This document shows positions 1 to 39,099 of a stretch of DNA of 39,099 nucleotides, one piece after another (position 1 is the stretch's first letter; every line of letters starts with the position of its first letter). Made by a program: the position numbers and the translations under genes. Under the pieces are notes generated by a model. That model did not search any database and was not told the DNA's origin. It was given only the letters and a program-made list of their open reading frames with translations. Origin of the DNA: a virus (lineage: Duplodnaviria; Caudoviricetes); IMG/VR virus record IMGVR_UViG_3300017707_001960, positions 1-39,099 of that record; one strand, given 5' to 3'.

Positions 1-123
1 GTTCTCATTCCTTCGGACGCGCCTTGGCCTTCGTGAGTCGAGCCAATGCACCTTCCTGCGTGATCTTGATGGGCGTGCGAATCTCTCGTTCCGCTTTGTC
101 CACCCATGAGGCAGATACCTCCA
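1..123. repeat. Terminal direct repeat (copy 1), most likely circular assembly overlap
   Basis: 1-123 is identical to 38977-39099. Confidence 0.95.
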
Positions 124-196
124 GCAAATCAGCGGCCTCGGACTGAGTGAGTCCGAGGCGCTGGCGATGGCTTTTGAGTTGTTCAGCGAAGTTCAT
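5..196 (-). CDS. XRE-family HTH protein (cassette B4)
   Basis: LKSHRQRLGLTQSEAADLLEVS is a typical HTH_3/XRE pattern; paralog of 37593-37847. Confidence 0.85.
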   Translation of the reverse strand: MNFAEQLKSHRQRLGLTQSEAADLLEVSASWVDKAEREIRTPIKITQEGALARLTKAKARPKE

Positions 197-578: not shown

Positions 579-640
579 TGAGAACCATGAGATGCAGCAC
601 AACGGGGCTAAGGCCCCGTTGCTGATCTCAAACGTTCTCC
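579..640 (+). other. attC site B4
   Basis: R'' TGAGAAC, CATGA, L'' GATGCAGC, hairpin AACGGGGC/GCCCCGTT, L' GCTGATC, TCAAAC, R' GTTCTCC; extra base in L''. Confidence 0.92.
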
Positions 641-879
641 GAAAGCTCGCACGCCACAGCGAGCACCATCACGCTTGCCATAGGCTGACCGTCCTTGCTG
701 GCTTTCTTCGCGATCTGGATGGCCGCGCTGAGGATTGAGGTGTTGCCCTCCTTGGCTACCCCTCGAATGATGGGGCTGATTTCGTTGATCTTCTGGGGCC
801 AGTTGTCCCCATGCAGTCGGCGCATAGTGTCGCGTGCATCGTAGAGCTTGGCAGTAGTGCGGATTAGTTTTTCGGTCAT
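628..879 (-). CDS. Hypothetical protein (cassette B5)
   Basis: ORF MTEKLIR...ELSENV fills the interval between attC B4 and B5; start could extend to 915. Confidence 0.7.
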   Translation of the reverse strand: MTEKLIRTTAKLYDARDTMRRLHGDNWPQKINEISPIIRGVAKEGNTSILSAAIQIAKKASKDGQPMASVMVLAVACELSENV

Positions 880-902
880 AAGGTTGTCGTGGGTAAATCG
901 TC

Positions 903-995
903 GGAGAACCATCACATGCAGGCAACGGCTCGTAGCTCATCTGTCATGTCCGCGGGCGTCCATCGCTCGCCGTCGCCTGATCCGGGACGTTCTCC
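903..995 (+). other. attC site B5
   Basis: R'' GGAGAAC, CATCA, L'' CATGCAGG ... L' CCTGATC, CGGGAC, R' GTTCTCC. Confidence 0.88.
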
Positions 996-1246
996 GAGAA
1001 AAGCAGATGCGGTGCGTAAGCCCGAAGCCACTTTTCAGCCTCGTCTTGAGCGTTCACTTCATCCCGCATGATTTCTGCCAGCAGTTCAGCGGCATTGTCA
1101 CGCTGCTCTGCGCATCGTGTGCCGTTGCGTTTCCCTTCTGCCACCCATCCTTCGAGTTCCGTGATTCGATCTCGTAGCCTTGCGGATGATTCGTGAGCAT
1201 CATGCAGCCTGCGTTGCAGTTCATTCAGTTCGGTGTTTTCGGCCAT
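944..1246 (-). CDS. Hypothetical coiled-coil protein (cassette B6)
   Basis: ORF MAENTELNELQRRL...; helical charged sequence; stop lies in the attC B5 loop. Confidence 0.7.
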   Translation of the reverse strand: MAENTELNELQRRLHDAHESSARLRDRITELEGWVAEGKRNGTRCAEQRDNAAELLAEIMRDEVNAQDEAEKWLRAYAPHLLFSENVPDQATASDGRPRT

Positions 1247-1268
1247 AGTATGTCTTGGGTAGTTCGCC

Positions 1269-1361
1269 GGAGAACCCGGCAGTGCTGGCAACGGCGGGGA
1301 GTTGCCTGTTTATGGTTTCGGAAGTGCAGCGCCCGCCGTCGCCAGACTTGAGGCGTTCGAC
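1269..1361 (+). other. attC site B6
   Basis: R'' GGAGAAC, CCGGC, L'' AGTGCTGG ... L' CCAGACT, TGAGGC, R' GTTCGAC. Confidence 0.9.
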
Positions 1362-1615: not shown

Positions 1616-1674
1616 GTCGAACAAGGCGGTGGACTCAACCGCGAGGACGCGGCGAGTCACCTTGTTCGTTCGAG
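1616..1674 (+). other. attC site B7 (59 bp)
   Basis: R'' GTCGAAC, AAGGC, L'' GGTGGACT, CCGCG/CGCGG stem, L' AGTCACC, TTGTTC, R' GTTCGAG. Confidence 0.92.
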
Positions 1675-1933
1675 TGAAAGTGCGCGGTGATTTGCCGCCC
1701 TCTCTTCCGGCGTCGGAACTGGAACAAGGTCGTCGCATGCACAGCCGGTAACGTTGCTTCTTGGATTCGGGTTTTGATCGTCAAAGTGCATGCTCAATGG
1801 TTCAAATTTGCCACTCCAGCTCGTGCCGGTGGCGGGGCAAAAGGGCGTGCTGGTGGAAATGGAAAAGGTAGGTGGCGAGGCGTTGGGCTTGGGGCCGGGT
1901 GAGCGTGAGGTGGCGGGTGCAGCGGGTGGGTGG

Positions 1934-7563: not shown

Positions 7564-7830
7564 ATGACCGCCTCCGAAATCCAACACCGTTTTACCAACA
7601 TCGTGGTCGAGCAGTTATGCTGTGATCCTGACGATGTGGTGGCTGATGCGACCCTGCGCGATTTGGGCGCGGATTCGCTCGATGAGATCGAAATCATCAT
7701 TTTCTGCGAGGAGGATTTTGAGATCAACATCCCGGATGACGATGCGGCCAAACTCAAAACCGTGCTCGATTGCGTGAACTATCTGCATGCCGAGCTGAAC
7801 CGCAATCCGCTGCTCATGCGCAACTCATAA
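7564..7830 (+). CDS. acpP: Acyl carrier protein
   Basis: IVVEQL...DLGADSLDEIEIII..EEDFEINIPDDDAAKLKTV with the phosphopantetheine Ser in DSL. Confidence 0.88.
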   Translation: MTASEIQHRFTNIVVEQLCCDPDDVVADATLRDLGADSLDEIEIIIFCEEDFEINIPDDDAAKLKTVLDCVNYLHAELNRNPLLMRNS

Positions 7831-7863
7831 CCCGTAACCCATAACTCAAAACACATACCCACC

Positions 7864-8274
7864 ATGCCCAACAAACTGAACGCCTACATCGACCCGCTCA
7901 AACTTCAGGGCGCGGTTTTGATGACTCTCAAAGACAAGACTGGAGCACCGACGGAGTGCCTGGTGATCCAGTTGAAAAACTCGCGGATTCGCCGGACAGA
8001 ACGATCTGGCAAGCTCGGGTTGTCCATCGACCTGGTGCCGAATCGCGATGGCAAGGACGAGTTTGGCAACACGCACTGGATCAAGGAGAGCACGACGAAG
8101 GCCGAACGCGAAAGCGCCACGCCGCCGAATCTGCCGTTTCTGGGCAATGCCCGCGAGTATGACGCGGCAACAGGCGGCCAGCGAACGGCACGGCCTGCGG
8201 GCGGTGTGCCGGTGACGGGCGGCGACTCCTCGCCGATGGCGGAGGGGATGGAGGACGATGACATACCGTTTTGA
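7864..8274 (+). CDS. SSB-like protein
   Basis: G/P-rich linker and acidic tail EDDDIPF; replication module context. Confidence 0.6.
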   Translation: MPNKLNAYIDPLKLQGAVLMTLKDKTGAPTECLVIQLKNSRIRRTERSGKLGLSIDLVPNRDGKDEFGNTHWIKESTTKAERESATPPNLPFLGNAREYDAATGGQRTARPAGGVPVTGGDSSPMAEGMEDDDIPF

Positions 8275-8360
8275 ACGTCTCGGATCAGTGACCGCGAACC
8301 CATGATCACGAATACACGACAGCCAGCCCAGAGCGGTTCACTTCATCCGATTTGTTCGGT
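8270..8360 (-). other. attC site A2
   Basis: Minus strand: R'' ACCGAAC, L'' GATGAAGT, GAACCGC/GCGGTC stem, L' ACTGATC, CGAGAC, R' GTTCAAA. Confidence 0.8.
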
Positions 8361-8595
8361 TTGTGGCGAGCCTGTGTGGGGCGGAACGAAGCGCCACCCA
8401 GCAACAAAGTGCTTGTTTCACTTTAGCTGCATTTGCGCGGAATGCGGTCATGAGGCGTTCTGGCTGACAACTAGGAAAAACCCAGAAGGCCGCTGGGTCT
8501 GCTTCTCGCTTCAATGCGGCTGGGTAAGCACTGAATACACCAAGCCATTTCATCAACCGAACGTCAAAACGCAGCAACCCCGAAACGAAGCCTAA
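8302..8595 (+). CDS. Cys-rich (Zn-finger-like) hypothetical protein (cassette A2)
   Basis: CSVC, CAEC and C..LQC motifs; starts in the attC A2 loop and ends in the attC A1 loop. Confidence 0.65.
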   Translation: MITNTRQPAQSGSLHPICSVCGEPVWGGTKRHPATKCLFHFSCICAECGHEAFWLTTRKNPEGRWVCFSLQCGWVSTEYTKPFHQPNVKTQQPRNEA

Positions 8596-8652
8596 GATAT
8601 GAGCCTGCCTGATGCCAACTCGAAGTCACAAGACCATCAACCCTTGTTCGGC
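8556..8652 (-). other. attC site A1 (degenerate L'' arm)
   Basis: Minus strand: R'' GCCGAAC and R' GTTCGGT with L' GCTGCGT; the L'' position (TTGATGGT) does not pair. Confidence 0.6.
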
Positions 8653-8862
8653 ACGGGGGATGAGATGGAGTTTCGCCGCCAGTTTGCCATTCAATTCTTG
8701 GCGAGCTATGCGGCTACTAACTTCAACGACTTATGCGCCAATGGACGCCAAGGCTCCCTTGAGCGGCTACCTGTCGAAGATGCTGAATATCTCAGCGGCA
8801 CAGCATGGCGTCACTGGTGCTACACGATGCCGATGAAGCCGAACAAGAATTATCCAGACTGA
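8599..8862 (+). CDS. Hypothetical protein (cassette A1)
   Basis: 87-aa ORF bounded by GTTCGGC (8646) and GCCGAAC (8838); ends inside attI-A. Confidence 0.7.
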   Translation: MSLPDANSKSQDHQPLFGTGDEMEFRRQFAIQFLASYAATNFNDLCANGRQGSLERLPVEDAEYLSGTAWRHWCYTMPMKPNKNYPD

Positions 8863-8910
8863 CTTTTCCTCTCAACACCTGCAAAACCGGAAACATTCTA
8901 AAACTTATGA
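8838..8910 (-). other. attI-like site A plus intI leader
   Basis: Minus-strand GTCTGGATAATTCTT-GTTCGGC just upstream of intI, non-palindromic; its core matches R'' of the first cassette. Confidence 0.82.
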
Positions 8911-9911
8911 ACCTGCGTGATACACTGGAACAAGTTCGGCTGACGTGCCGCATGCGGCGGTTGTCGAGGCACACGGAGGAGTCTTATGCGGGGTGGATCG
9001 TGCGGTTTGCCAGGCATGTGGCACGCAGGGTGGAAGAGTCACGGGAGGAACGGGTGCGGAGTTTTCTGGAGCAGATGGCCCCGCGTTGCTCGGCATCGAC
9101 GCAAAACCAGGCTTTCAATGCCATCGTGTTCTTTTACCGCGATGTGCTGCGTCAGCCGTTGGGTGATCTGGGGAAATGGACCCGTGCGAAACGGCCGGCA
9201 CGGCTGCCGTCGTGGCTGAGTCCTGATGAGATGCGGCGTTTGTTTGATGCGATGACACCGGGGCCGCTACTCATGGCGCAGGTGGCGTATGGCAGCGGCG
9301 TGCGACTGGCGGAACTGCTGGCGCTGCGGGTGAAGGACATCGACCTGGATGCGTGCCTCATCACGGTGCGCGGCGGCAAGGGTGACAAGGACCGCGTGAC
9401 ATGCCTGCCTCGCTCGCTGGTGTTCACGCTGCGGGCGCATTTGGACCGCATTCGGCTGCTGTATGATGCCGACCGTCAGGCGGGCGCGATGCCGGTGTAT
9501 CTGCCGGACCAACTGGAGCGCAAATATCCGAACGCTGGCCGCGAGTGGCCGTGGTTCTGGCTGTGGCCTGCGGCAAATCAAAGCACCGATCCACGCAGCG
9601 GCATCGTGCGCAGGCATCACATTCATGAGGACACGCTGGGCAAGGCGCTGAAGAATGCCCGCCGTCGCTGCGGACTGAGCAAACGAGTGACGGCGCACAC
9701 GCTGCGTCATAGCTTTGCCACGAACTTGCTGGCGAACGGAGCCAGCATCACGCAGGTGCAGGAATTGCTCGGGCACAGCAGCGTGGAAACGACGCAGATT
9801 TACACGCACTGCATTCCGCAGTTTGCCCGCAGCATCACGAGTCCGATGGACACGCTGCCGCAACCTGCCAACGTGGTGCCGTTTGAAACGCACACAAGGA
9901 GGGCGGCGTGA
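8907..9911 (+). CDS. intI: Integron integrase (IntI family tyrosine recombinase)
   Basis: N-terminal LSRHTEESY..W, ASTQNQAFNAIVFFYR; catalytic R, K (GKGDKDR), HTLRH, LGH, TQIY; IntI-specific insertion VYLPDQLERKYPNAGREWPWFWLWP...DPRSGIVRRHH. Confidence 0.95.
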   Translation: MNLRDTLEQVRLTCRMRRLSRHTEESYAGWIVRFARHVARRVEESREERVRSFLEQMAPRCSASTQNQAFNAIVFFYRDVLRQPLGDLGKWTRAKRPARLPSWLSPDEMRRLFDAMTPGPLLMAQVAYGSGVRLAELLALRVKDIDLDACLITVRGGKGDKDRVTCLPRSLVFTLRAHLDRIRLLYDADRQAGAMPVYLPDQLERKYPNAGREWPWFWLWPAANQSTDPRSGIVRRHHIHEDTLGKALKNARRRCGLSKRVTAHTLRHSFATNLLANGASITQVQELLGHSSVETTQIYTHCIPQFARSITSPMDTLPQPANVVPFETHTRRAA

Positions 9912-13318: not shown

Positions 13319-13370
13319 ACCATCAAAACAATGATGAATTCTGGCCGGAGAAAATCAACTTACCACAAAC

Positions 13371-14035: not shown

Positions 14036-16315
14036 ATGTCCGTCCCTGCTGAACTCCCCTCCGTCATCGACCCGGAGAAGCCGCTTGCGGACTGGAAGGT
14101 GACAGATGCGCTGGACGAAATGGAGGCCGCCTGCCGCGATGCGAGCGGATTCCTCAAGCAGATGGCGACCAATGAGCAGACGCGCAAATGCTGGTGGCAG
14201 AACAAGACCGGCACGGGCAAGAAGGCCAACACGAAAACCGCCGACGCCAAGCCTTTCAACGGCGCGGCCGATCATGAGGTGCATCTGACGCAGGCCGTGA
14301 TGAACCGCCGCAACGCGGCCCGCATCGCGGCGCTGATGGCCGGCAATCTCAACGTGACGCCGATGGAGAGCACGGACGCGAAGCGGGCCGGACTCATGCG
14401 CCAGGTGCTCCGCTACTACCTGAACGGCCCCATGCGGACGGAGTTTGTCACCCAAGGACTGCGGGCGGGCAGCTATGCCGACCGTTTCCGCGCCGGGGTG
14501 ATGTATGTGGGATGGAAGGAAGAGCGCGGCGTCGAGCCGATCCAACTCACGCGGGCTATGGTGGCGGAGATGCTGCAAATGCAGTTTGCCGCCGAGGCGC
14601 AGGACATGACGCTGATCGAGGGCATCGACTTCGAGGCGCTGGTGCTGGACGAAAGCCGCGAGGCTGAAATAATCGCACTGGTGCTGCGGAATCTGCCCGG
14701 TGCCGCCGAGCGCCGGAAGATTGGCGAAGCCTCCGTGAAACGGGCGCTGGCCCGCCTGCGAGCCGGGGATGACACCGCCGTGGTGCATGCCGCCTATGTG
14801 AAGCGTTCAAGTCCCTGCTGGGAAGCATTGCAGCCGTTTGTCGATGTCTTTTTCCCCTACGAGACGCTGATGGAAGATAATCTGGAAAGCTGCCGCTGGA
14901 TCGCCCGCGTGCGGTGGCGTTCCGCGCAGTGGATCAAGGAGCAGGCCGCTTTGCATGGCTGGGACAAGGCATGGGTGAAGGAGGTGCTGGAGAAGCACAA
15001 GGGGCGCAGCAATCTCTTCAGCAACAGCATGGCGTCCTACCCGTGGGCGCTCAGCGGTGCCGGGGTGAACTGGAGCGCCCGCACGAATGGCGAGGCGCAA
15101 AATCATTTGTATCAAATCATCGAGCTGTGGGATCGCGCTGTCACGGTGGACGGCCTGACGGGAACGTATCACACCATCCTGCATGCGGATGTGAAGGACA
15201 AGGTGGCGAAGCGCCAGCTCCGCATGGACTGGGATGGCTGTTATCCGTTCGTGCCGTTCACCTTCAGCCAGGACGAGCGATTGATTCTCGACGGCTTCAG
15301 TGTGCCGGAGATCACCATGACGAAGGAGCAGGCGGTGAAGGCGCAGTGGGACAGCCGCACGGATGCCGCCAGCCTGACCACCTTTCCCACCTGGACCGGC
15401 GACCCGGAGCTGGAGGGCTTGCGGCCCGCGCCCGGCGTCTTCCTGCCGTCCATCCGTGGCAAGGTGCCGCAAGCCTTGCAGATCCCGCCGCCTGACGGGC
15501 GCAGCATCGAGATTGAGCGCACGCTGCGGGAGAGCATCAACGAGTTTTTTGGCTTCCCCAGCCGCACGCTGCCGGACAGCGTGGCGATGATGATGGGCCA
15601 GGCTGATCTGGACTGGTTCATGCTCGCCATCTCGCAGTGCATCGCCCGCACGGCCAAGCTGATCCAGCAATACATGCCGCCGTTGCAAGGTGCCCGCATC
15701 ACCGGCACGAACGAACTCGTGACCGCCACCGCCAACGACGTGCGCGGCGGCTTTGACTTCCAGGCGAAGTTCAACGTGAAGAGTCTCGACGTGGAGTGGA
15801 CGAGCAAGCATCTGGGCTTCATCAAGGATATGATCGTGCCGCTGGACAATCGCGGCCAGATCAACACGCTGCCCATTCTGGAAGCGGGCTTCAACATGCT
15901 CGACCCGGGACTTGCGGCGCAATGTCTGCCGAAGGATGCCGACACGGCGCAGCGCCAGACGCTCGACATGGCCCGCATGCACCTGGCTGAAATCTTCACC
16001 GGAGGAGCGCCGGACGTGACCGAGGGCATGGACTTTGGCGGGCTGGCGCAAGCCGTGACAGATGAGATCACCCGCAGCCCGCTGCGGCAGCAGAGCATCA
16101 TCGGCGGCCAGCAGATCCATGTCGTGCTGACCAGCTACCTCGCGGGACTGGTGAACAACCAGAAGCAGCACGGCGGGGAAAATGCCCGCATCGGCCGCAC
16201 GCTCACGGACGACCCGCTGGCGCAACCGAGCGCGGCGGAAGGCTTGCTGCAAACGCTGCAAGGACTGCCGGAGGGCGTGAGTCTGGCGCAAGTGATGGGG
16301 GGAGTGAGTTCTTAG
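14036..16315 (+). CDS. Portal protein
   Basis: 759 aa, between terL and scaffold/capsid; YPFVPF and related podovirus-portal-like segments. Confidence 0.75.
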   Translation: MSVPAELPSVIDPEKPLADWKVTDALDEMEAACRDASGFLKQMATNEQTRKCWWQNKTGTGKKANTKTADAKPFNGAADHEVHLTQAVMNRRNAARIAALMAGNLNVTPMESTDAKRAGLMRQVLRYYLNGPMRTEFVTQGLRAGSYADRFRAGVMYVGWKEERGVEPIQLTRAMVAEMLQMQFAAEAQDMTLIEGIDFEALVLDESREAEIIALVLRNLPGAAERRKIGEASVKRALARLRAGDDTAVVHAAYVKRSSPCWEALQPFVDVFFPYETLMEDNLESCRWIARVRWRSAQWIKEQAALHGWDKAWVKEVLEKHKGRSNLFSNSMASYPWALSGAGVNWSARTNGEAQNHLYQIIELWDRAVTVDGLTGTYHTILHADVKDKVAKRQLRMDWDGCYPFVPFTFSQDERLILDGFSVPEITMTKEQAVKAQWDSRTDAASLTTFPTWTGDPELEGLRPAPGVFLPSIRGKVPQALQIPPPDGRSIEIERTLRESINEFFGFPSRTLPDSVAMMMGQADLDWFMLAISQCIARTAKLIQQYMPPLQGARITGTNELVTATANDVRGGFDFQAKFNVKSLDVEWTSKHLGFIKDMIVPLDNRGQINTLPILEAGFNMLDPGLAAQCLPKDADTAQRQTLDMARMHLAEIFTGGAPDVTEGMDFGGLAQAVTDEITRSPLRQQSIIGGQQIHVVLTSYLAGLVNNQKQHGGENARIGRTLTDDPLAQPSAAEGLLQTLQGLPEGVSLAQVMGGVSS

Positions 16316-16361
16316 TTATGGGTTATTGGTTAAGGGTTATTGGTTAGGACTTATTTGTTTT

Positions 16362-24285: not shown

Positions 24286-24852
24286 ATGAACATCTTCCTC
24301 GATCCCGGACATGGTATGTCCAACCGCAAGCCCGGCATTTACGATCCCGGCGCCACGGTGCGCGTGGGCAAGGAGGACATCACCGAGGCTGGCATTGTCA
24401 TGACCTGGGCGAATGAACTCCGCGCCCTGCTCATGGCGCAGGGCCACACGGTCATACGCAGTCGCAAAGACATGCTCGATCCCTCTCCGCTCGGCGACCG
24501 CGTGGAGGACGCGCATCATTTCAAATGCGACGTGCTCGTGAGCCTGCACTGCAACGCGGCGAATGGCAAGGCGAACGGCACCGAGACGTTCTTTCGGGGC
24601 GAGCGCAACCGCACGCTGGCGCAGCGGTGCAATGATGCCGTGGTAAACGCACTGGGCACGCGCAACCGTGGCGTCAAGACCGAAAGCGCCAGCCAGCATG
24701 CCCGCCTCGCCGTGCTGGACTTCCCCCGCGCCGTGCTCATCGAGCTGGGCTTCATCGACCACCCCGGCGACCGCGCCCTGCTGCTCGATCCCAAGAAGAT
24801 GCTGCAAGCCTGTGACGCGCTCTGCGATGCCATCACCGGCACCACCTCTTAA
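24286..24852 (+). CDS. N-acetylmuramoyl-L-alanine amidase (Amidase_3) endolysin
   Basis: IFLDPGHG, E, VSLHCNA, GTETF, AVLIELGFID. Confidence 0.92.
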   Translation: MNIFLDPGHGMSNRKPGIYDPGATVRVGKEDITEAGIVMTWANELRALLMAQGHTVIRSRKDMLDPSPLGDRVEDAHHFKCDVLVSLHCNAANGKANGTETFFRGERNRTLAQRCNDAVVNALGTRNRGVKTESASQHARLAVLDFPRAVLIELGFIDHPGDRALLLDPKKMLQACDALCDAITGTTS

Positions 24853-24889
24853 CTCATCACCTCTAACTCCTAACTTCTAACCCATCCCC

Positions 24890-25960
24890 ATGCCCCGCGA
24901 CCCGCGAGAAACCACCCCCTTTGAAACTGTGGCGACCGTCAAGCCGGGCGAAGTCGCCGCTTTGCTGTGGGTGCCGGAGAATCAGATCCGCGGGGATTTC
25001 TCGCTCACGGTGGGCACGACGCTGCAAGCGGCGCTGCCGCTGGTGTCGAAGGGTGACGGCTTGGGCCGAGGCTTTGAAAACTACGTCTTCACCGACAACG
25101 GCCCCGTCGATGCGGGATGGCATGGGTTCTACTTTGCGCGACCGTTCAGCAGCGGGGAGAAGACGACGGCCTTCCGCACGGTGACGGAGATTCGGGGCGG
25201 CATCTACTGGCCGCCCGTCATGGCCGGGCTAAACGTGCGCAACTTCAAAGCCTACGACGCGGACGGGGTGGAATACACGGCAGATGTGATTTGGGACTTC
25301 AACCTGCGGGACGCCTACGACGGCCCCACCAAAGTGGTGATCGAATACTTCGCCAGCCATGAGCCGCACACCATTGCCACGCCGACGACGATGCAGCCGG
25401 AAGGCGGCACGTTCTTTTATGGCGTGGGGCAGGTGAGCATCCCTCGCTGCCTGCATCCTTCGCTGGAACTCATTTACAGCACCGGCAGCGCCAGCACGCG
25501 CTACCCGTTGCAGACGTTTGTGAAGGCATTCCCGAATACCAATCTGACAAGCTGGCCGGCCACGCTGGTGATTGACGACGGGGAGAAATTCGACAACGGC
25601 CTTTACATCCGGCGCAAGGTCACGGCGTATCGTCCTGGCGACTACGCCACCGCGCCGATCATCTCGACGCCGACGAAGGCCAGCATCGGCAGCACGACGG
25701 TGACGCTGGGCGGCAATGCCAGCAACGACGGCGGCAGCACGATCACCGAGCGCGGCGTGGTGGTGAGCGCCACCGCGACGAATGCCGATCCCGTCATTGG
25801 CGGCACCGGCGTGACGAAAACCACCACCACCGGCACCACAGGTGTGTTCACCGTGGCCGTCACCGGACTCACCAGCGCCACCGGCTACACGTTCAAAGCC
25901 TATGCGACCAACGCACGCGGCACCAGCTACACCGCACTCGACACCTTCACCACCAGCTAA
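24890..25960 (+). CDS. Virion protein with C-terminal fibronectin type III-like domain
   Basis: GGNASNDGGSTITERGVV...TGLTSATGYTFKAYATNARGTSY. Confidence 0.7.
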   Translation: MPRDPRETTPFETVATVKPGEVAALLWVPENQIRGDFSLTVGTTLQAALPLVSKGDGLGRGFENYVFTDNGPVDAGWHGFYFARPFSSGEKTTAFRTVTEIRGGIYWPPVMAGLNVRNFKAYDADGVEYTADVIWDFNLRDAYDGPTKVVIEYFASHEPHTIATPTTMQPEGGTFFYGVGQVSIPRCLHPSLELIYSTGSASTRYPLQTFVKAFPNTNLTSWPATLVIDDGEKFDNGLYIRRKVTAYRPGDYATAPIISTPTKASIGSTTVTLGGNASNDGGSTITERGVVVSATATNADPVIGGTGVTKTTTTGTTGVFTVAVTGLTSATGYTFKAYATNARGTSYTALDTFTTS

Positions 25961-26012
25961 CGCATAACTCTTAACTCATCACCCCTAACTCCTAACCCCT
26001 AACCCATCACCC

Positions 26013-27995: not shown

Positions 27996-30900
27996 ATGCC
28001 ACGCTACGAACTCACCTCCGCCCACACGGGCAAGACCTACGTCATCGAAGGCGAGGGCCAGCCGACCGACGACGACATGATCGACATCGGCCGGCAGCTC
28101 GATGAGCAGACGGCGCGGCAGGCGGGGATTGATCCCGCGCTGCTTCAGCAGACACCTGCGGGCACGGTGGCAAACACGGTGCGGAACATCGGGCCGGAGT
28201 TTGTCGATATGGCCGTGGGCGGACTGGCGAAGCTGAACGAGACGCTGGGCCGCTCCCCGCTGGGCATCGTCTCCCCGCTGGCGCTGGCAAACCGGGCCAC
28301 GGAAATGGTGACGGGCATCAACCCGCTGGCACGCACCGCCGAGGCCACGCAGGTGATCCGCGAAACGGGCGAGGACATGCGCCCCGTGAACCCGTTCAAC
28401 CCGACTGCCCGGACCATCGGCAGCGCGATCAATCAAGTCGGCGGCATGGTGGCGACGGGCGGACTTGCTACCGCCGCAGGCATGGCCCCGGCCACCGCGA
28501 TGACAGCCATCCCTGGCGGCATCGGCTTCGCCGCAGGCGCAGGCCAGGGCATCGACACCGCCCGTCAAATGGGCATCACCGACCCGACCGCGCAGGCGGG
28601 CATGGGCATGGCCTTTGGCGGTGTGGAGATGGCGACCGAGCGACTGGGCGGTATCGGCGGCGACGTCGTGAACCGTTTCATCCGGCCGCAATCCCTGCTG
28701 GGCCGTGCCGCGCTGAATGTGGCGAGCGAATCCGTAGAAGAAAATGTGGCGGGCCGTGCGCAGGATGCAGTCACGGTAGGGGCAGGTCAATTCGTGTCGG
28801 ACCCCAACCGCCCCGGCTTCACCCGCAGCGGCTTCGAGTTGCCGAGCCTGAACCCGCTGAATCCGCAGACCCTTGAGCGCATGAAGCAGGAGGCCATCGG
28901 CGGCGCTGCTGGCGGCGTCGTGTTCAGCGGACTGCAAGCCCTTTCCCCTTCTGCCAGCGTAACCAAGGAATCCGGTCCGACTGCCGATCAAACCGTGCAG
29001 CAAGCCGCCGGTGCGGGTTTGAGTCCCGCCGCTGGCTCCCCTTCCCCTTCCCCGCTCGGCGGCATCGCCCGCAGGGCCGGAACGGTGGATGTGGCGCCGC
29101 TGGTGCCGGGGCTGGAGGAGGACACGGGGGCGCTGACGATGGCGGAGGTGGCGGGGCTGGAGCCAGTTTCAAGTTCCACGTTTCAAGTTTCAAGTCCGGA
29201 GACCGGCAGCCAGCGGCAGGCGATTTTGACGAATGTGCCGGACGCGGTGACGCAGCCGGACAACGGACCCGCGCAAACCATCACTGGCTCCAATGTGCAA
29301 ACGGGCACTGAAATGCCAGTGCCGCCCCCGACTGCGGACGCAGGTGCCGGGGCGGGCGCAACCGTGCCGGGTGCGCAGGGGGTAGGACAAGCAATGTCCG
29401 ACACCGCGCCCGACTCGCAGCTTGACGGACTGCGCACGCAGGAGGTGCCGGTGGGCAGTCTGCGTTTGTCCAAGGACGTGCCGCAGTTCAAGAGCGACGC
29501 GGACGAGGAAACCGGTGTGGTGGAACCGCTGGCGGGCAAGTATCAACGGCTCGGCACGGGGCCGATCCTTGTCTGGGAACGGCTGGACGGCCGCCGCGAG
29601 GTCATTAGCGGGCGGCATCGTTTTGATCTTGCCAAACGCACCGGAGAGCAGACAATCCCGGCGCAGGTCGTGCGCGAGGCGGACGGCTTCACCGTTCAAA
29701 TGGCGGTGACGGCGGACGCAGAACTTAACATTCGAGACGGTCATGGAAAAACCAAGGACTTTGCCAACTACTTCCGCGCCAGCGGCACCACGGACACCGA
29801 AGCAGAAAGCCGAGGCTTACTCGCACGCGCTGCGGGCAAGGCTGGGTGGAGCATCGGCACTCAGGGAAGCCAGGAACTCTTTGATCTACACCAGAACGGC
29901 CGGCTGACGGATGCGCAGGCCGCTGCGGTGGCCCGCACGGCTCCCGGCAACGAGGCGCTGCAACGCGCTGGCATCGCCGCGCTGAACCGTGGCACGCCCA
30001 TTGATGTCACGGTCAATCTGATGCGGGCGCTGGAGCTGCAAACCGGCCCGGCTCCGACCGCCGACCAGCTCGACCTCTTTGGCGCGGATGATTCGATGAT
30101 GCTGCGCATGGAGGAGCAGGCGAAGAAGGCGACCGAGATCCAGCGCGGACTGAAGGAGCAGGTGGCCGCCGTGCAAGGCGCGGCCAAACGCCCGGAGCAG
30201 GCCCGCAAGCTGGGCGTGAATGTGAAAGACCCGGACGGCGTGCGCAAGCGGGTGGAAGAACTCAAGGCGCTGCTCTACCGCTGGGAATCCTGGCCGCTGC
30301 ATGCGGACCTGCGAGCGCAAGTCACAGGCGAAACGCAGGCGCCTGCGATGCAACTGGAAAGCGTGAGCGCGGAACAACTGGCCGAGGAGCAACGCCAGCG
30401 CGAGCAACGCGCCCGACTCGATGCCGGCCAGGCCGCGCCCCTCACCGGCACCGCAGGCGAATACGGCACGCCTGACATGCTCGACAATACGGCTGGAGAC
30501 ATGGCGCTGTTCAATCAATCGCCGACTCTTCTCCTTCCCGCTCGGAACTTCACGGGCGGGCTGGCGCAGCAGCTCGAAGGGAGCGCGGCCACTCTTGGCC
30601 GCAATGCAGCGCGAAGCACCAGGAACCCAGAACCCATCACCCCTAACTCTTCACTTTCGTCTGCCTACGCCCAAGCCTCACGCGGCAGCAGCAGCGCGAT
30701 GGTGCCGATCTCCCGCGTCTATGAGCAGGTGAAGGCGCAGAACCCGGCGCTGACGGTGCCGCAGTTTCTGGCCGAGGTGCAGGCGGCGGACCAGCGCGGC
30801 GAGGTGCTGCTGGAGCCGTTCGATTCCCCGCAGGGCTTGCAAGCGGCGGGCGAGTTCACCGTGCGCAATGCCAGCGGGGTGCCGTCGATCAACATGGCGG

Positions 30901-35491: not shown

Positions 35492-36648
35492 GTGCGCTGA
35501 AGCGCAAGATCGCGGGGGTGAAGGTGCGGTTTTACAAGCGCACGGCGGGATCAAATCTGAGCATGGATTTTGAGATCGACGGGGAGCGGTTTCAGGAATC
35601 GACGGGCTGGCCGCACATCGCGGACGCGGAGCGGGTGGCGTTGGATCGCATCAACAAGATCAACGAGGCTCGGCGTGCGTTTGGAGCGGGGGCACTGGTG
35701 CGTGGATCTATGGCGACGGTGGGCGAGGTGTGCGAGGCGCTGCGTGTAGGCGACAAGGTGATGGATGAGAAGACGCTGACGCGATACATGGCGGCGCTGG
35801 TGTGTCTGGCGCGGGTGGTGGATGAGGCGCGGCCTCTCGATGTGACGCTGGACAAGGTGATTGATCGCGTGACGCTGGAGCGGTATGTGAGTCTGGCGCA
35901 GGGCAATCAGGGGCGCGGCGTGAACTGGCACGATCAACTGCCGATGAACGGCGCGATCAATTCGACGCTGCGGAATGCGGCGAGTTTGTTCCAAGAGAGG
36001 CTGGTGGGAAGGCACTTGAGCGCGCTGCGGCTGCCGCCGCTGGAGCCGCTGCGGAAGTTCACGGCGCTGCCGACTCTGCCGACTCATTTTATCCCGTGGC
36101 CGACTGAGAATGTGACGGCGATGGACGCGGCAGCGCGGGCGCTGAAGACGGAGCAGCCGGAGCTGTGGCTGTGCCATGTGATGCTGCGCAGGCTGGGGCT
36201 GCGTGATGCGGAGCTGCTGGGCGCGCGGGCGGCCTGGGTGCAGTGGGGGCAGGATGGCAAGGCGTGGTTGGATCTGCGCACACGCACGGCGGAGGGTGGC
36301 GAGCCTGCTTTCCGACTGCTGAAGGGTGGCAAGCCGCGCCGTCTGGCGCTGGATGCGGAGATTCAAGAGGCTTTGCGGGGGCGCCCGGGCTGGCTGATCG
36401 GTGACGGCTGGGGCGAGTCAAAACGCTACGATTTTGTGTATCGTGAGCATTGCGACTGGTTGCGGCCGTTTGTGCCGGAGGGGCGCATGAAGGTGAATCA
36501 CGAGCTGCGGAAGCTGGCGGCGAGCCGGGTTTACACGCAGCACGGGATCGCCGCGGCGGCGTATTTCCTGGGCGACTCGGTGACGACGACGGAGCGCTAT
36601 TATGCGGCTTGGACGGCGGAGGCTCCGGTGGTGGCGTGGGAGGTGTGA
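35488..36648 (+). CDS. int: Phage tyrosine integrase
   Basis: N-terminal arm-binding-like domain, LGLRDAEL, HELRK, YFLGDS..TTERYY; next to attP. Confidence 0.82.
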   Translation: MSALKRKIAGVKVRFYKRTAGSNLSMDFEIDGERFQESTGWPHIADAERVALDRINKINEARRAFGAGALVRGSMATVGEVCEALRVGDKVMDEKTLTRYMAALVCLARVVDEARPLDVTLDKVIDRVTLERYVSLAQGNQGRGVNWHDQLPMNGAINSTLRNAASLFQERLVGRHLSALRLPPLEPLRKFTALPTLPTHFIPWPTENVTAMDAAARALKTEQPELWLCHVMLRRLGLRDAELLGARAAWVQWGQDGKAWLDLRTRTAEGGEPAFRLLKGGKPRRLALDAEIQEALRGRPGWLIGDGWGESKRYDFVYREHCDWLRPFVPEGRMKVNHELRKLAASRVYTQHGIAAAAYFLGDSVTTTERYYAAWTAEAPVVAWEV

Positions 36649-36676
36649 CCGGGAAACCGTTCTTTGTTCGTGGTGC

Positions 36677-37234
36677 TTAGTTCTTGGTCGCACTAGCAAG
36701 GCCGGGCACGAGTTCGGCCTCGATGACGGTGGCGCTTTGCTGTTCCAAGGCGGCGCGGCGTTCGGCGGCGGCTTTGCGGGCGGCTTCGAGTCGGTCTTGA
36801 GCGGAGACGGTGACGACGGCTTTAATTTCCGTGGGCATGCCGTGCAGGCTGCGCTCGATGTCGTGGGCCATTTTGGTGCTCATGGACACGGCCATGAGGT
36901 CGGACTTTTTCGCGTCGGGTATCAACTCGACCATCTTTTCCGTGCCTTGGAGGACGGCGAGCTGCGCATTTTTGGCGGCGAGTTCGGCGAGTTGTTCAAC
37001 GGTGAACTCGGTTCGCATGAGGGCGGCGATGGTTTGCCGGGACTTTCCCACGCCTAGCTTGCCGAGTTCGCGTTCGAGTGCGGAGATGTTGGTGATGCCG
37101 TGCTCGCGGATCATCTCGACGCAAATGGCGTAGCTTTCGGGATCGCTGCTTTTCCAATTCTTCGCCGTGTGCTCGCGCCACAAGTCGATGGGATGCGGAG
37201 GCAGATCGGCGAGGGGAAGCGGCGGGGTGGTCAT
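36677..37234 (-). CDS. HTH/helical protein, terminase small subunit-like
   Basis: HTH-like NISALERELG...SRQTIAAL, helical core, G.PTEI motif, C-terminal VIEAELV; assignment is inference. Confidence 0.45.
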   Translation of the reverse strand: MTTPPLPLADLPPHPIDLWREHTAKNWKSSDPESYAICVEMIREHGITNISALERELGKLGVGKSRQTIAALMRTEFTVEQLAELAAKNAQLAVLQGTEKMVELIPDAKKSDLMAVSMSTKMAHDIERSLHGMPTEIKAVVTVSAQDRLEAARKAAAERRAALEQQSATVIEAELVPGLASATKN

Positions 37235-37302
37235 AGGTTTTAGAATGTTTCCGGTTTTGCGGGTGCTACCCAGAAATATTGTCTGGATAGTTCTTGTTAG
37301 CT
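37231..37302 (+). other. attI-like site B (second copy of attI plus intI leader)
   Basis: Reverse complement matches 8838-8910 in two blocks; core GTTAGCT at 37296 matches R'' at 37521. Confidence 0.82.
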
Positions 37303-37589
37303 GACTTCCAAAGGCGCGCCCACATCGACGGGCGGCGGAGTTTCTGGTTCTCAAATTCTAGTCGGTCGGCGCGGGCTTTTTCAGCGCGATACCATACACA
37401 CAGCCATGTGCGCCAACGGTTAATTGTGTATTGACTGCTCTGCCATTTATTAATCCGCCGTTCAAGCTTCTGACAGCGACGATTCAGGCGTCGGTTCGTC
37501 TCGCGGGCGATAGCCAAGTCAGCTAACAAGGCGCTGGACTCCGACAGAATGGGCTTCTGTGTCGTATCGATGGGGTGATTCTGTTCCAT
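37266..37589 (-). CDS. Hypothetical coiled-coil protein (cassette B1)
   Basis: Starts in the attC B1 loop and ends in attI-B (ANKNYPD). Confidence 0.7.
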   Translation of the reverse strand: MEQNHPIDTTQKPILSESSALLADLAIARETNRRLNRRCQKLERRINKWQSSQYTINRWRTWLCVWYRAEKARADRLEFENQKLRRPSMWARLWKSANKNYPDNISG

Positions 37590-37650
37590 ATTCTATTGTT
37601 CCATGGCAGGTTTCCGCCGCCCATTCTGCGGGTCAGCTTGATCGTTCGTC
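37521..37650 (+). other. attC site B1 (130 bp)
   Basis: R'' AGCTAAC, AAGGC, L'' GCTGGACT, CAGAATGGGC/GCCCATTCTG stem, L' GGTCAGC, TTGATC, R' GTTCGTC. Confidence 0.88.
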
Positions 37651-37847
37651 CCCTGAGTGCGTCGCTTGGCCTTCGCGAGCCTCGCAAGCGCCCCTTCCTG
37701 CGTTAGGACGTGCGGAAGCGTGCCTTTCTCCCACTGCCACACGGCACGCGGGGAAACGTCCAGGAATGCGGCAAGCTCGGCCTGTGTCAGGCCGAGCCGC
37801 TCGCGTTGGTCTTTGAGTTGTTCAGGGAAGCTCACAGGATTTTGCAT
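37593..37847 (-). CDS. XRE-family HTH protein (cassette B2)
   Basis: LKDQRERLGLTQAELAAFLDVSPRAVWQWEKG. Confidence 0.88.
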   Translation of the reverse strand: MQNPVSFPEQLKDQRERLGLTQAELAAFLDVSPRAVWQWEKGTLPHVLTQEGALARLAKAKRRTQGTNDQADPQNGRRKPAMEQ

Positions 37848-38014
37848 CCGATTTCGTTTCCGGTGACGAAGCTTGAGACGTATTCCACGTCTCCGTCTTC
37901 CGTCGTGACCTCATAGGAGGTTCCTACTTTGTCGCTGATTTGGCCGAGGACCGAGCGGCCCATTCCAAAGTTGATCTTGACTGCGGTGCCGTTTTTGATG
38001 TCGAGTGTTTTCAT
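37832..38014 (-). CDS. Small beta-rich hypothetical protein upstream of HTH (cassette B2)
   Basis: 60-aa ORF overlapping the HTH start; preceded by a promoter/operator region. Confidence 0.7.
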   Translation of the reverse strand: MKTLDIKNGTAVKINFGMGRSVLGQISDKVGTSYEVTTEDGDVEYVSSFVTGNEIGCKIL

Positions 38015-38039
38015 GGTGTGTTCGGTTTGGTTACGTTTC

Positions 38040-38093
38040 TAGTTTCGCACATTATGCGAACAGAACAAGTAATATTTTCGCATATTGTGCGAT
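38040..38093 (-). promoter_or_regulatory. Promoter with twin palindromic operators (cassette B2)
   Basis: TTCGCACATTATGCGAA (38044-38060) and TTCGCATATTGTGCGAT (38077-38093); same 33-bp offset as in B4. Confidence 0.7.
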
Positions 38094-38315
38094 TTATTTC
38101 TCAGAGCACTCTGAGCATAGAGGAGCATTCCCGAACGCCCCGCCTCGGCTGTCCATGCCGTCGCGGCGCATCCAGTTTGATGCTGGTAGGAACTTCCCGC
38201 AGCCGATACCAGAGCCAACCATGCCCGTCGTGCTCATACCGCACTGCGTAAGCCATTCGTGACGGGGACGAACCATGCGCTGCTGACCAACTGGCGGGGC
38301 GGATGAGTCTTTCAT
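38094..38315 (-). CDS. Possible Cys-containing small protein (cassette B2)
   Basis: ATG in the attC B2 loop overlaps the upstream stop (ATGA); CG..GCGKF..CSEC. Confidence 0.4.
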   Translation of the reverse strand: MKDSSAPPVGQQRMVRPRHEWLTQCGMSTTGMVGSGIGCGKFLPASNWMRRDGMDSRGGAFGNAPLCSECSEK

Positions 38316-38366
38316 GGTGGCGATGCTGGTAGCGCCCCGCCAGTGGCAGAGCTTGAAGCGTTCTCC
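38267..38366 (+). other. attC site B2
   Basis: R'' GACGAAC, CATGC, L'' GCTGCTGA, ACTGGCGGGGCG/CGCCCCGCCAGT stem, L' GCAGAGC, R' GTTCTCC. Confidence 0.88.
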
Positions 38367-38551
38367 CCCTTGCGGGAGCGCTTCGGACTGCGGAGTGCAA
38401 GAAGCTCTAGCGCCATCGCTGCCTCTTGCGTGATAGTGCCGCCTTGCTCGCGCTGGTTGATTGCTTTGCGGCTTACTCCCAGCGCAACGGCCAGAGCGGC
38501 CTGGGTCATCCCCAGCCGCTCCCGTGTGGCTTTGTATTCGTCGGAGGTCAT
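38312..38551 (-). CDS. XRE-family HTH protein (cassette B3)
   Basis: MTSDEYKATRERLGMTQAALAVALGVSRKAINQREQG. Confidence 0.85.
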   Translation of the reverse strand: MTSDEYKATRERLGMTQAALAVALGVSRKAINQREQGGTITQEAAMALELLALRSPKRSRKGENASSSATGGALPASPP

Positions 38552-38799
38552 GCTACTGCTTTTTCCCATCCGCGAAAGTTGCCGGACTCAAACTCATTGA
38601 TCATGTAAAGCTTCGTTCCGTTGCCGCGAGTCGCTACGATTTCGCGCTTGATCTTGTTTTCCTTCATCACCCGAGCGGTGTTTTCACGACCGCGAGCGGC
38701 GACTTGCTCTGGAGTGAAGGATTGCAGGACATTGAATGTGAGACCGTTGATTTCGATCTTTTCGATTGCGATGTGAGGGGCGATTGATGTTGTGTTCAT
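38548..38799 (-). CDS. Small hypothetical protein upstream of HTH (cassette B3)
   Basis: 83-aa ORF with ATGA overlap to the HTH gene. Confidence 0.72.
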   Translation of the reverse strand: MNTTSIAPHIAIEKIEINGLTFNVLQSFTPEQVAARGRENTARVMKENKIKREIVATRGNGTKLYMINEFESGNFRGWEKAVA

Positions 38800-38807
38800 G
38801 GTGAGAG

Positions 38808-38859
38808 ATAGTAACCCAAGGTTACAGCCAGTCAAACGCTAAATGTAACTTTTCGTAAC
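38808..38859 (-). promoter_or_regulatory. Sigma70-like promoter with twin operators (cassette B3)
   Basis: Minus strand TTGACT-N16-TACTAT; GTAACCCAAGGTTAC (38811-38825) in the spacer and GTAACTTTTCGTAAC (38845-38859). Confidence 0.7.
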
Positions 38860-38884
38860 TTTATTCAACGTCTGGCAGAACGGG

Positions 38885-38983
38885 GGAGAACAAGCCCACT
38901 GGAGCTAACCTGATGGGCGAGGTTGCACCATCGGCTAGCCACGCTTTGCCCGCCCATCAGGTAGCTCACTGGAGATGTTCTCA
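38885..38983 (+). other. attC site B3
   Basis: R'' GGAGAAC, L'' ACTGGAGC, ACCTGATGGGCG/CGCCCATCAGGT stem, L' GCTCACT, GGAGAT, R' GTTCTCA. Confidence 0.85.
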
Positions 38984-39099
38984 TTCCTTCGGACGCGCCT
39001 TGGCCTTCGTGAGTCGAGCCAATGCACCTTCCTGCGTGATCTTGATGGGCGTGCGAATCTCTCGTTCCGCTTTGTCCACCCATGAGGCAGATACCTCCA
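38977..39099. repeat. Terminal direct repeat (copy 2)
   Basis: Identical to 1-123. Confidence 0.95.

Follow-up and report, generated by a model that had tools for sequence, protein, structure and literature searches.

Introduction

In textbook integrons, the promoterless cassette genes point away from attI and do not contain the crossover. In the window, the whole stretch of 39,099 nucleotides analysed here (IMG/VR record IMGVR_UViG_3300017707_001960; Duplodnaviria, Caudoviricetes), the cassette genes instead point to attI and intI, and the crossover is part of the coding sequence. This raises the question of how genes that are recombined within their last codons are terminated, and whether their reading frame at that point is fixed. 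A first-pass annotation had noticed that the open reading frames (ORFs) reading through a crossover all use the AAC of the core, the complement of GTT, as an asparagine codon. The observation is real, was correctly seen and is general across viral integrons.

A phage genome with two cassette arrays

The 123 bases at either end of the window are identical and the record carries direct terminal repeats, which marks it as a complete phage genome. Apart from the integron integrase (Table 1), it encodes a capsid protein, a DnaB helicase, an amidase, a terminase and a second integrase-like protein. In IntI, residues R133, K158, H264, R267, H290 and Y299 are invariant across 15 homologs, and we take these to be the catalytic residues. 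The closest bacterial IntI in the tree belongs to a Verrucomicrobiota genome, at weak support (81/73), and none of the nine IntI records of cultured phages reaches 60% identity to the IntI of the window. Another freshwater sequencing run contains 81% of the sampled window words.

The genome carries two cassette arrays, of which array A adjoins intI and array B spans the circular origin; within each array the attC sites are in direct orientation. Eleven crossovers were located, at 8844, 8562 and, distally, 8276 in array A, and at 37296, 37644, 38360, 38977, 634, 989, 1355 and, distally, 1668 in array B, giving two and seven complete cassettes, respectively. The attC sites show R''/L''/L'/R' boxes plus an extra base on the L'' arm, and attC A1, from which the QP-N-VKT crossing takes its tail, has a decayed hairpin (dG -5.1, z +0.9). 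The attI-like site 1, 65 nt upstream of the intI ATG, is constant in relatives whose first cassettes vary. An Rfam search of the window gave zero matches. The arrays are not attC clusters without intI and attI (CALINs), since the genome encodes IntI and array B has an attI copy. This second copy (37231-37302) includes the sequence as far as the intI start codon and is joined to an unrelated gene at 36677-37234.

Table 1. Position, strand and main properties of the integron features in the window.
Feature	Position	Strand	Remarks
intI, integron integrase	8907..9911	+	TIGR02249 354.7 bits (cut-off 265); start codon from sequence
attI-like site 1	8838..8906	-	crossover G|TT at 8844|8843; gives tail NKNYPD*; non-palindromic, upstream of intI
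Cassette A1 ORF, 87 aa	8599..8862	+	begins within own attC, ends in attI
attC A1	8556..8652	-	contains A2 stop, then A1 start 3 nt on
Cassette A2 ORF, 97 aa, Cys-rich	8302..8595	+	reads QP-N-VKT
attC A2, distal site of array A	8270..8360	-	
Backbone gene, not a cassette	7864..8274	+	its TGA overlaps distal core of array A
attI-like site 2	37231..37302	+	inverted copy of site 1, no adjacent intI; G|TT at 37296|37297; tail NKNYPDNISG*
Cassette B1 ORF, 107 aa	37266..37589	-	
attC B1	37521..37650	+	B2 stop, then B1 start 3 nt further
Cassette B2 HTH gene	37593..37847	-	reads GT-N-DQA
attC B2	38267..38366	+	B3 stop overlaps ATG of ORF 38094-38315 (ATGA)
Cassette B3 HTH gene	38312..38569	-	reads GE-N-ASS
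attC B3	38885..38983	+	dG -30.4, z -5.9
Cassette B4 HTH gene	5..196	-	own TGA directly before core, no read-through
attC B4	579..640	+	gives tail NV*; dG -22.1, z -7.9
Cassette B5 ORF	628..912	-	start 879 or 912; reads SE-N-V*
attC B5	903..995	+	B6 stop overlaps 11-codon ORF, whose stop overlaps ATG at 912
Cassette B6 ORF, 100 aa	944..1246	-	reads SE-N-VPDQ
attC B6	1269..1361	+	
Cassette B7 ORF, 98 aa	1310..1606	-	reads LS-N-ASS
attC B7, distal site of array B	1616..1674	+	dG -19.8, z -5.4
44-codon candidate ORF	1657..1791	-	crosses distal crossover (1670) off-frame; no homolog found; possible exception
Crossing SE-N-V*	AAC 636-634	-	
Crossing SE-N-VPDQ	AAC 991-989	-	
Crossing LS-N-ASS	AAC 1357-1355	-	
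Crossing GE-N-ASS	AAC 38362-38360	-	
Crossing GT-N-DQA	AAC 37646-37644	-	
Crossing SA-N-KNYPD	AAC 37298-37296	-	
Crossing KP-N-KNYPD	AAC 8842-8844	+	
Crossing QP-N-VKT	AAC 8560-8562	+	

The eight read-through crossings

All eight crossing peptides quoted in the first-pass annotation are present in the frames given, each with AAC as Asn. They had been assigned to positions 628-1361, which holds for three of them; the other five lie in the same array across the origin or in the second array near intI. The claim that AAC is in frame at every crossing stands for eight of the nine complete cassettes, the exception being the HTH gene of B4, which has its own TGA, and the tally of in-frame read-throughs becomes eight of nine if the 44-codon ORF at 1657-1791 is real. 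At all eight crossings the gene has no stop of its own and takes its tail from the attC or attI next to it, and tails vary according to the neighbour.

The probability of (1/3)^7 (about 0.0005) proposed for the agreement rests on the wrong null. In 16 backbone genes, AAC occurs in the three frames at 178:89:57, that is, as a codon in 178 of 324 occurrences (55%). Because AAC is already in frame this often, the codon-usage null gives p = 0.008 for eight of eight, and p = 0.021 for GAAC cores.

The called frames as coding frames

The reading also depends on whether the called frames are the coding ones, and this was upheld by domains, homology and third-position variation. Pfam HTH domains support the frames of the B2 and B3 proteins, and the B4 gene likewise encodes an HTH protein. 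Mismatches to homologs, counted by codon position, fall mainly at third positions in B6 (3:2:25), B3 (8:10:21) and B2 (13:13:32), and weakly so in B7 (25:17:34); among the variant letters listed, 24 of 29 in B6 and four of six in A2 are at third positions. Protein homologs were found for A1 (13), B1 (7) and B5 (one, E 4e-10). A rival frame of 110 codons at 608-940 was rejected as the coding frame, with zero homologs against the one for B5, as were forward-strand ORFs after comparison of ORFs and homology. Beyond the window, PHROG matches were obtained for 23 of 96 in-frame proteins and for one of 32 other-frame controls, and that one control match sits past the crossover. A count of stops made independently of ORF calls, over the 40 codons that precede the core in 133 families, gave 60, 167 and 210 for the three frames.

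These data bear on the suspicion that open frames were simply chosen because they give Asn. GC-rich DNA has many open frames, the 110-codon rival is one of them, and the null for the eight cases was too lenient; nevertheless, homology, third-position variation and the ORF-free stop counts all favour the AAC frame. An ascertainment artefact is thereby largely refuted, and we give it next to no credence.

Polarity of the cassettes

All cassette genes of the window lie on the bottom strand of attC, often starting inside their own attC, and not on the top strand as in canonical cassettes. It is because of this placement that the crossover falls inside the last codons of the gene. The position of the extra L'' base, scored with our own and partly circular heuristic, favours the called polarity at seven of nine window sites, with a tie at B3 and a decayed site at A1. 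Since a test of core complementarity is symmetric and cannot decide polarity, pairs of related cassette boundaries were examined. Among 42 near-identical cassette pairs, ten have a different upstream gene, and all ten have kept the hairpin before the gene; these ten comprise five independent cases from reverse arrays, three duplicates and two from forward arrays. Likewise, ten of the 42 pairs diverge directly after AAC, six of them independent once duplicates and forward arrays are dropped. When 23 pairs were instead selected for a shared hairpin, six share only the downstream gene, one (borderline) only the upstream gene and 14 neither, with two ambiguous. The hairpin thus moves together with the gene downstream of it, and cassettes are bounded by the G|TT crossovers. 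The opposite polarity, in which the tail would come from the gene's own attC, was rejected on the position of attI and on the boundary pairs.

Contigs of other sequencing runs break off at crossovers (8559, 8563, 636 and 1671), and a clean joint skipping exactly one cassette was absent from the contigs compared, which covered the window outside 36600-39099. From differences between strains, we infer that IntI catalyses recombination at the sites of the window. Three sequencing runs contain the A2/attC A1 region (8344-8642) a second time, with slight differences and in a changed arrangement.

Reversed arrays in other viral integrons

The first-pass annotation had proposed that frames be tabulated over many phage cassettes. 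The loci comprised 25 viral ones with IntI, the best 80 of 446 viral IntI hits, five found by attI motif, and 80 of the bacterial loci. Our own heuristic attC finder, which orients the sites of phage Rctr41k correctly only if a 7-nt spacer is allowed, yielded 285 linked cassettes. From these we removed 27, namely those of the window and of a copy identical to it, and calls lying on the strand of intI. What remained was 215 viral cassettes, which group into 161 families at 60 loci, and 43 bacterial cassettes, in 42 families at 19 loci. The longest ORF is reversed in 124 of the 161 viral families and forward in 33; for the 42 bacterial families the counts are 5 and 37.

Among the 128 reverse-dominant viral families, 85 read through in the AAC frame and seven in other frames, while 16 stop on a core TAA, 19 stop shortly before it and one behaves otherwise; a stop of its own hence lets a family escape the frame rule in 35 of the 128. 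The frames are therefore not random: AAC is in frame in 85 of 92 read-through families (p = 3e-15 against the 55% codon-usage null, a value that is too small because families share ancestry). The AAC frame holds the majority in 42 of 46 loci and in each of five integrase groups (30:0, 18:2, 12:0, 4:0 and 25:3 against other frames), and the reversed type requires at least three forced changes on the IntI tree. Four of the seven families that read best in another frame also hold an in-frame ORF of 50 or more codons. At the 5' crossing, in the cassette's own R'', a frame lock is absent (21:22:23). Read-through of the cassette's own R'' is rare among forward cassettes (12 of 55 families), with the frames at 6:2:4. 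The reversed cassettes of L002, L009, L017, L020, L038, L093, L006 and L056 encode DNA methyltransferases, PAPS-reductase-like proteins, an RNA ligase and an exonuclease.

Stops and starts inside attC and attI

Of 165 distinct attC sites in reversed arrays, 145 contain a stop in the AAC frame; the other two frames have one in 97 and 80, and shuffled sequences in 97 +/- 6. Bacterial attC contain it in 29 of 55 and show no preference among the frames (29, 36 and 33 of 55). Tails of more than 30 codons would arise at seven of the 165 sites in the AAC frame but at 63 and 71 in the others. The stop is present at 21 of 23 sites of forward viral arrays as well, which places part of the bias before the reversal of the layout. 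In the AAC frame, each of the 29 distinct viral attI reaches a stop within 17 codons, and 23 of them do so in the second frame; seven of the 29 leave another frame open for more than 250 codons. Since the second frame also stops inside 97 of 165 attC and 23 of 29 attI, termination alone does not explain the 85:3 ratio between the frames.

Non-standard frames that stay open for more than 250 codons through attI were seen in the window (8805-8906) and in L002, L018, L024, L025, L065, L075 and L082. In the window this frame is continuous with intI, and a cassette arriving in it would be fused to IntI. At L023, the stop of the standard frame and the apparent start of intI overlap.

The stop frequently lies at the next start. 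Among 66 cassettes with an ATG in attC, the AAC-frame stop lies within -10 to +15 nt of that ATG in 45, including 23 exact overlaps; the other two frames reach 13 and 14. Of 112 junctions, 58 have a start codon of any kind near the stop, and at 26 attC contains no start. At 39 of 165 sites the stop comes after two codons, well away from the loop. In the window, three of six used attC tails are coupled directly, one via the 11-codon ORF and two not at all. Judged from such positions, the proposed stop-start coupling is partial and fits about half of the junctions.

Swapped C-terminal tails

A second comparison proposed in the first-pass annotation, of C-termini among homologs with different neighbours, found tails that diverge directly after AAC. 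The B6 protein ends in LLFSE-NVPDQATASDGRPRT in the window and in LLFSE-NDQIQP in L009, and seven further near-identical gene ends diverge at the same point. Relatives of the B3 HTH protein continue after RKSE with six different tails, and homologs of A1 and B1 bear different tails that begin with N. The median tail is 11 residues long (at most 25 in 91 of 96; natural range 2 to over 20). In five distant B1 homologs, the protein terminates close to the crossover position at a stop of its own; four of the five also lack the attC-coded N-terminal extension. The tails are probably dispensable, neutral appendages. The proposal that reshuffling swaps the tail while keeping termination intact accordingly survives as a description, as tails do swap at AAC, but the swapping looks like a by-product and not a purpose.

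Why the frame is shared

Reversed viral arrays combine inverted genes, a locked 3' frame, an unlocked 5' frame, an enrichment of in-frame stops and the swapping of tails at AAC. The explanation that we favour, and hold to be somewhat better than even, is that the shared AAC frame acts as an interface standard, which would give a nearby stop at any junction and a hand-over to the next start at about half of them. Phage operon transcription would read the arrays towards attI without a Pc promoter, as suggested by cassette genes pointing the same way as the flanking phage genes; a Pc promoter at intI/attI would face against them. IntI would shuffle the cassettes at G|TT. A gene arriving off-frame would often receive a long tail that overlaps the next gene, and would miss the start of that gene; most neighbours of a site lacking a stop in the common frame would fare likewise. 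With off-frame genes and stopless sites both penalised, the commonest frame would reinforce itself. AAC as a codon probably won because it was already the commonest register and because TAAC cores stop the second frame.

The same pattern could be an inherited convention without present selection, if new cassettes replaced the gene body and kept the attC, its leader and the in-frame 3' end. Consistent with this, 14 pairs have one hairpin in front of unrelated genes, frequently together with a short leader in common, and a B1 homolog, P0016, starts with the attC-coded N-terminus of the A1 protein of the window. However, the lock recurs in the five integrase groups with the repeated changes to the reversed type, the one hairpin-sharing pair inspected has only four to five core bases in common at the 3' end, and copying alone would let the stop-start overlap decay, which is instead enriched in the AAC frame. 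We regard inheritance alone as unlikely, though as a serious competitor. Still less probable is that the frame merely follows from the sequence of attC, whose arms would be open or stop early in the AAC frame while TAAC or TGAAC cores end the others. The motif AAC-NNN-TGA in 15 of 23 forward viral attC and the families that end on a core TAA agree with this idea, but bacterial attC have no such preference, the frame bias extends upstream into the gene body, and seven of the eight cores in the window are GAAC, leaving all frames free. A similarly small chance, if anything slightly smaller, is given to functional tail swapping, in which the position in the array would set a tail that alters protein stability or activity, as in a shufflon with PilV. 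The tails do vary over the range given above, and 20 of 96 end in Ala (a raw count); against a function speak the tailless distant B1 homologs, the absence of a common motif among the tails beyond what the hairpin imposes, and the same tails behind unrelated proteins.

Beyond the interface standard, a wider proposal is possible but doubtful: that phage integrons with an inverted cassette code form a widespread class, in which attC sites serve as one-frame stop-start connectors, IntI builds coupled operons, and cassettes are born when an ordinary phage gene is placed after an existing attC leader and cut back to an AAC in frame. If this were true, the arrays would be a visible factory for cassette genesis. 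The formation of cassettes becomes testable, with one attC before unrelated genes and untailed homologs for comparison. Shared attC hairpins before unrelated genes, which bear on how cassettes are made, were seen at 8556-8652 of the window and in P0016, L014, L009, L055-L057 and L084.

Relation to known systems

Shufflon recombination exchanges the C-terminus of a protein. The shufflons of IncI plasmids resemble the present arrays in that site-specific recombination takes place inside a reading frame (PMC5430464, in part). A shufflon inverts segments at fixed repeats and varies one protein, whereas here whole genes are excised and inserted and the tails are short; accordingly, the window has sites in direct orientation, many genes and short tails.

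The window shares with canonical integrons a TIGR02249 integrase, attI at the 5' end of intI, attC sites with R''/L''/L'/R' boxes and extra base, and the G|TT crossover; in bacterial integrons, the choice of the bottom strand orients genes for expression from Pc (parts of PMC8946536 and PMC8352920). It has been described that ORF-11 of attI1 in forward integrons takes its stop from the inserted cassette and couples translation (PMC8876359, in part). ORF-11, ORF-17, ORF-18 and short ORFs in attC likewise cross the crossover, use a neighbour's stop and are coupled, but ORF-11 is a leader peptide encoded on the top strand at attI1 (same portion of PMC8876359). Here the crossing ORF is the cassette gene, encoded on the bottom strand, at most junctions. 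In one forward cassette, translation into attC raises downstream expression (PMC11511950, in part). Synthetic attC placed in coding sequence remain able to recombine while encoding peptide (Nivina et al. 2020, PMC7439510, in part); those sites were engineered, whereas the attC of the window are natural, with stop and start within the site.

In phages, intI, attI and attC arrays with DNA methyltransferase cassettes, and the recombination of phage attC by IntI1, have been reported (Qi et al. 2023, PMC9892861, in part); such arrays are found here too, and methyltransferase cassettes also occur among the reversed ones. The accessible portion of that text has no description of reversed genes or a frame rule (zero occurrences of 'reverse' and of 'opposite'), and a reversed cassette class was not found in the accessible portions of PMC8618304, PMC8352920 and PMC8946536. 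In the literature searched, in which subscription journals are thinly covered, no description of the reversed, frame-locked layout was found. The array of phage TJE1 is forward, with three sites found that have the coding strand as top strand, one of which matches attC2 of PMC9892861; the array of phage Rctr41k is also forward. In TJE1 (L177, 77-1515), two of the three genes read the AAC of their own R'' as Asn and stop in the loop, and one stops on TAA. Dozens of viral integrons from several integrase groups have a reversed layout in which the recombination site is coding under a shared frame rule. This layout would let phages shuffle accessory genes (methyltransferases, HTH regulators and genes for proteins of unknown function) within their own operons.

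Further observations in the window

In three cassettes a small ORF is followed by an HTH gene (199-556 with 5-196; 37832-38099 with 37593-37847; 38548-38870 with 38312-38569). A palindromic or promoter-like stretch lies upstream of these pairs: 501-556 is repeated at 38044-38099, and a sigma-70-like site is found at 38835-38808. The pairs may be autoregulated, such as toxin-antitoxin modules. Promoter scans were close to chance (two found against 0.9 expected, and one against 1.2), and the non-HTH cassette proteins of the window matched no PHROG family.

At 8270-8276, array A ends at a GTT that overlaps the stop of the backbone gene at 7864-8274, which suggests a harmless insertion at a secondary site. 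The protein of this gene ends in DDDIPF, presumably an SSB-like tail. At 1794-1937, a protein-like stretch, RHLTLTRPQAQRLATYLFHF, was recognised by eye without an evident in-frame start, possibly owing to a frameshift or an assembly error. Short intergenic repeats of the type TAAC(T/C)C(A/T) are scattered at 7817-7865, 16295-16338, 24844-24889, 25952-26011 and 30624-30654, and a 38-nt repeat, AAGCGGGCAGGAGTGCCCGCGCT, occurs at 13361, 13741, 19355 and 24247.
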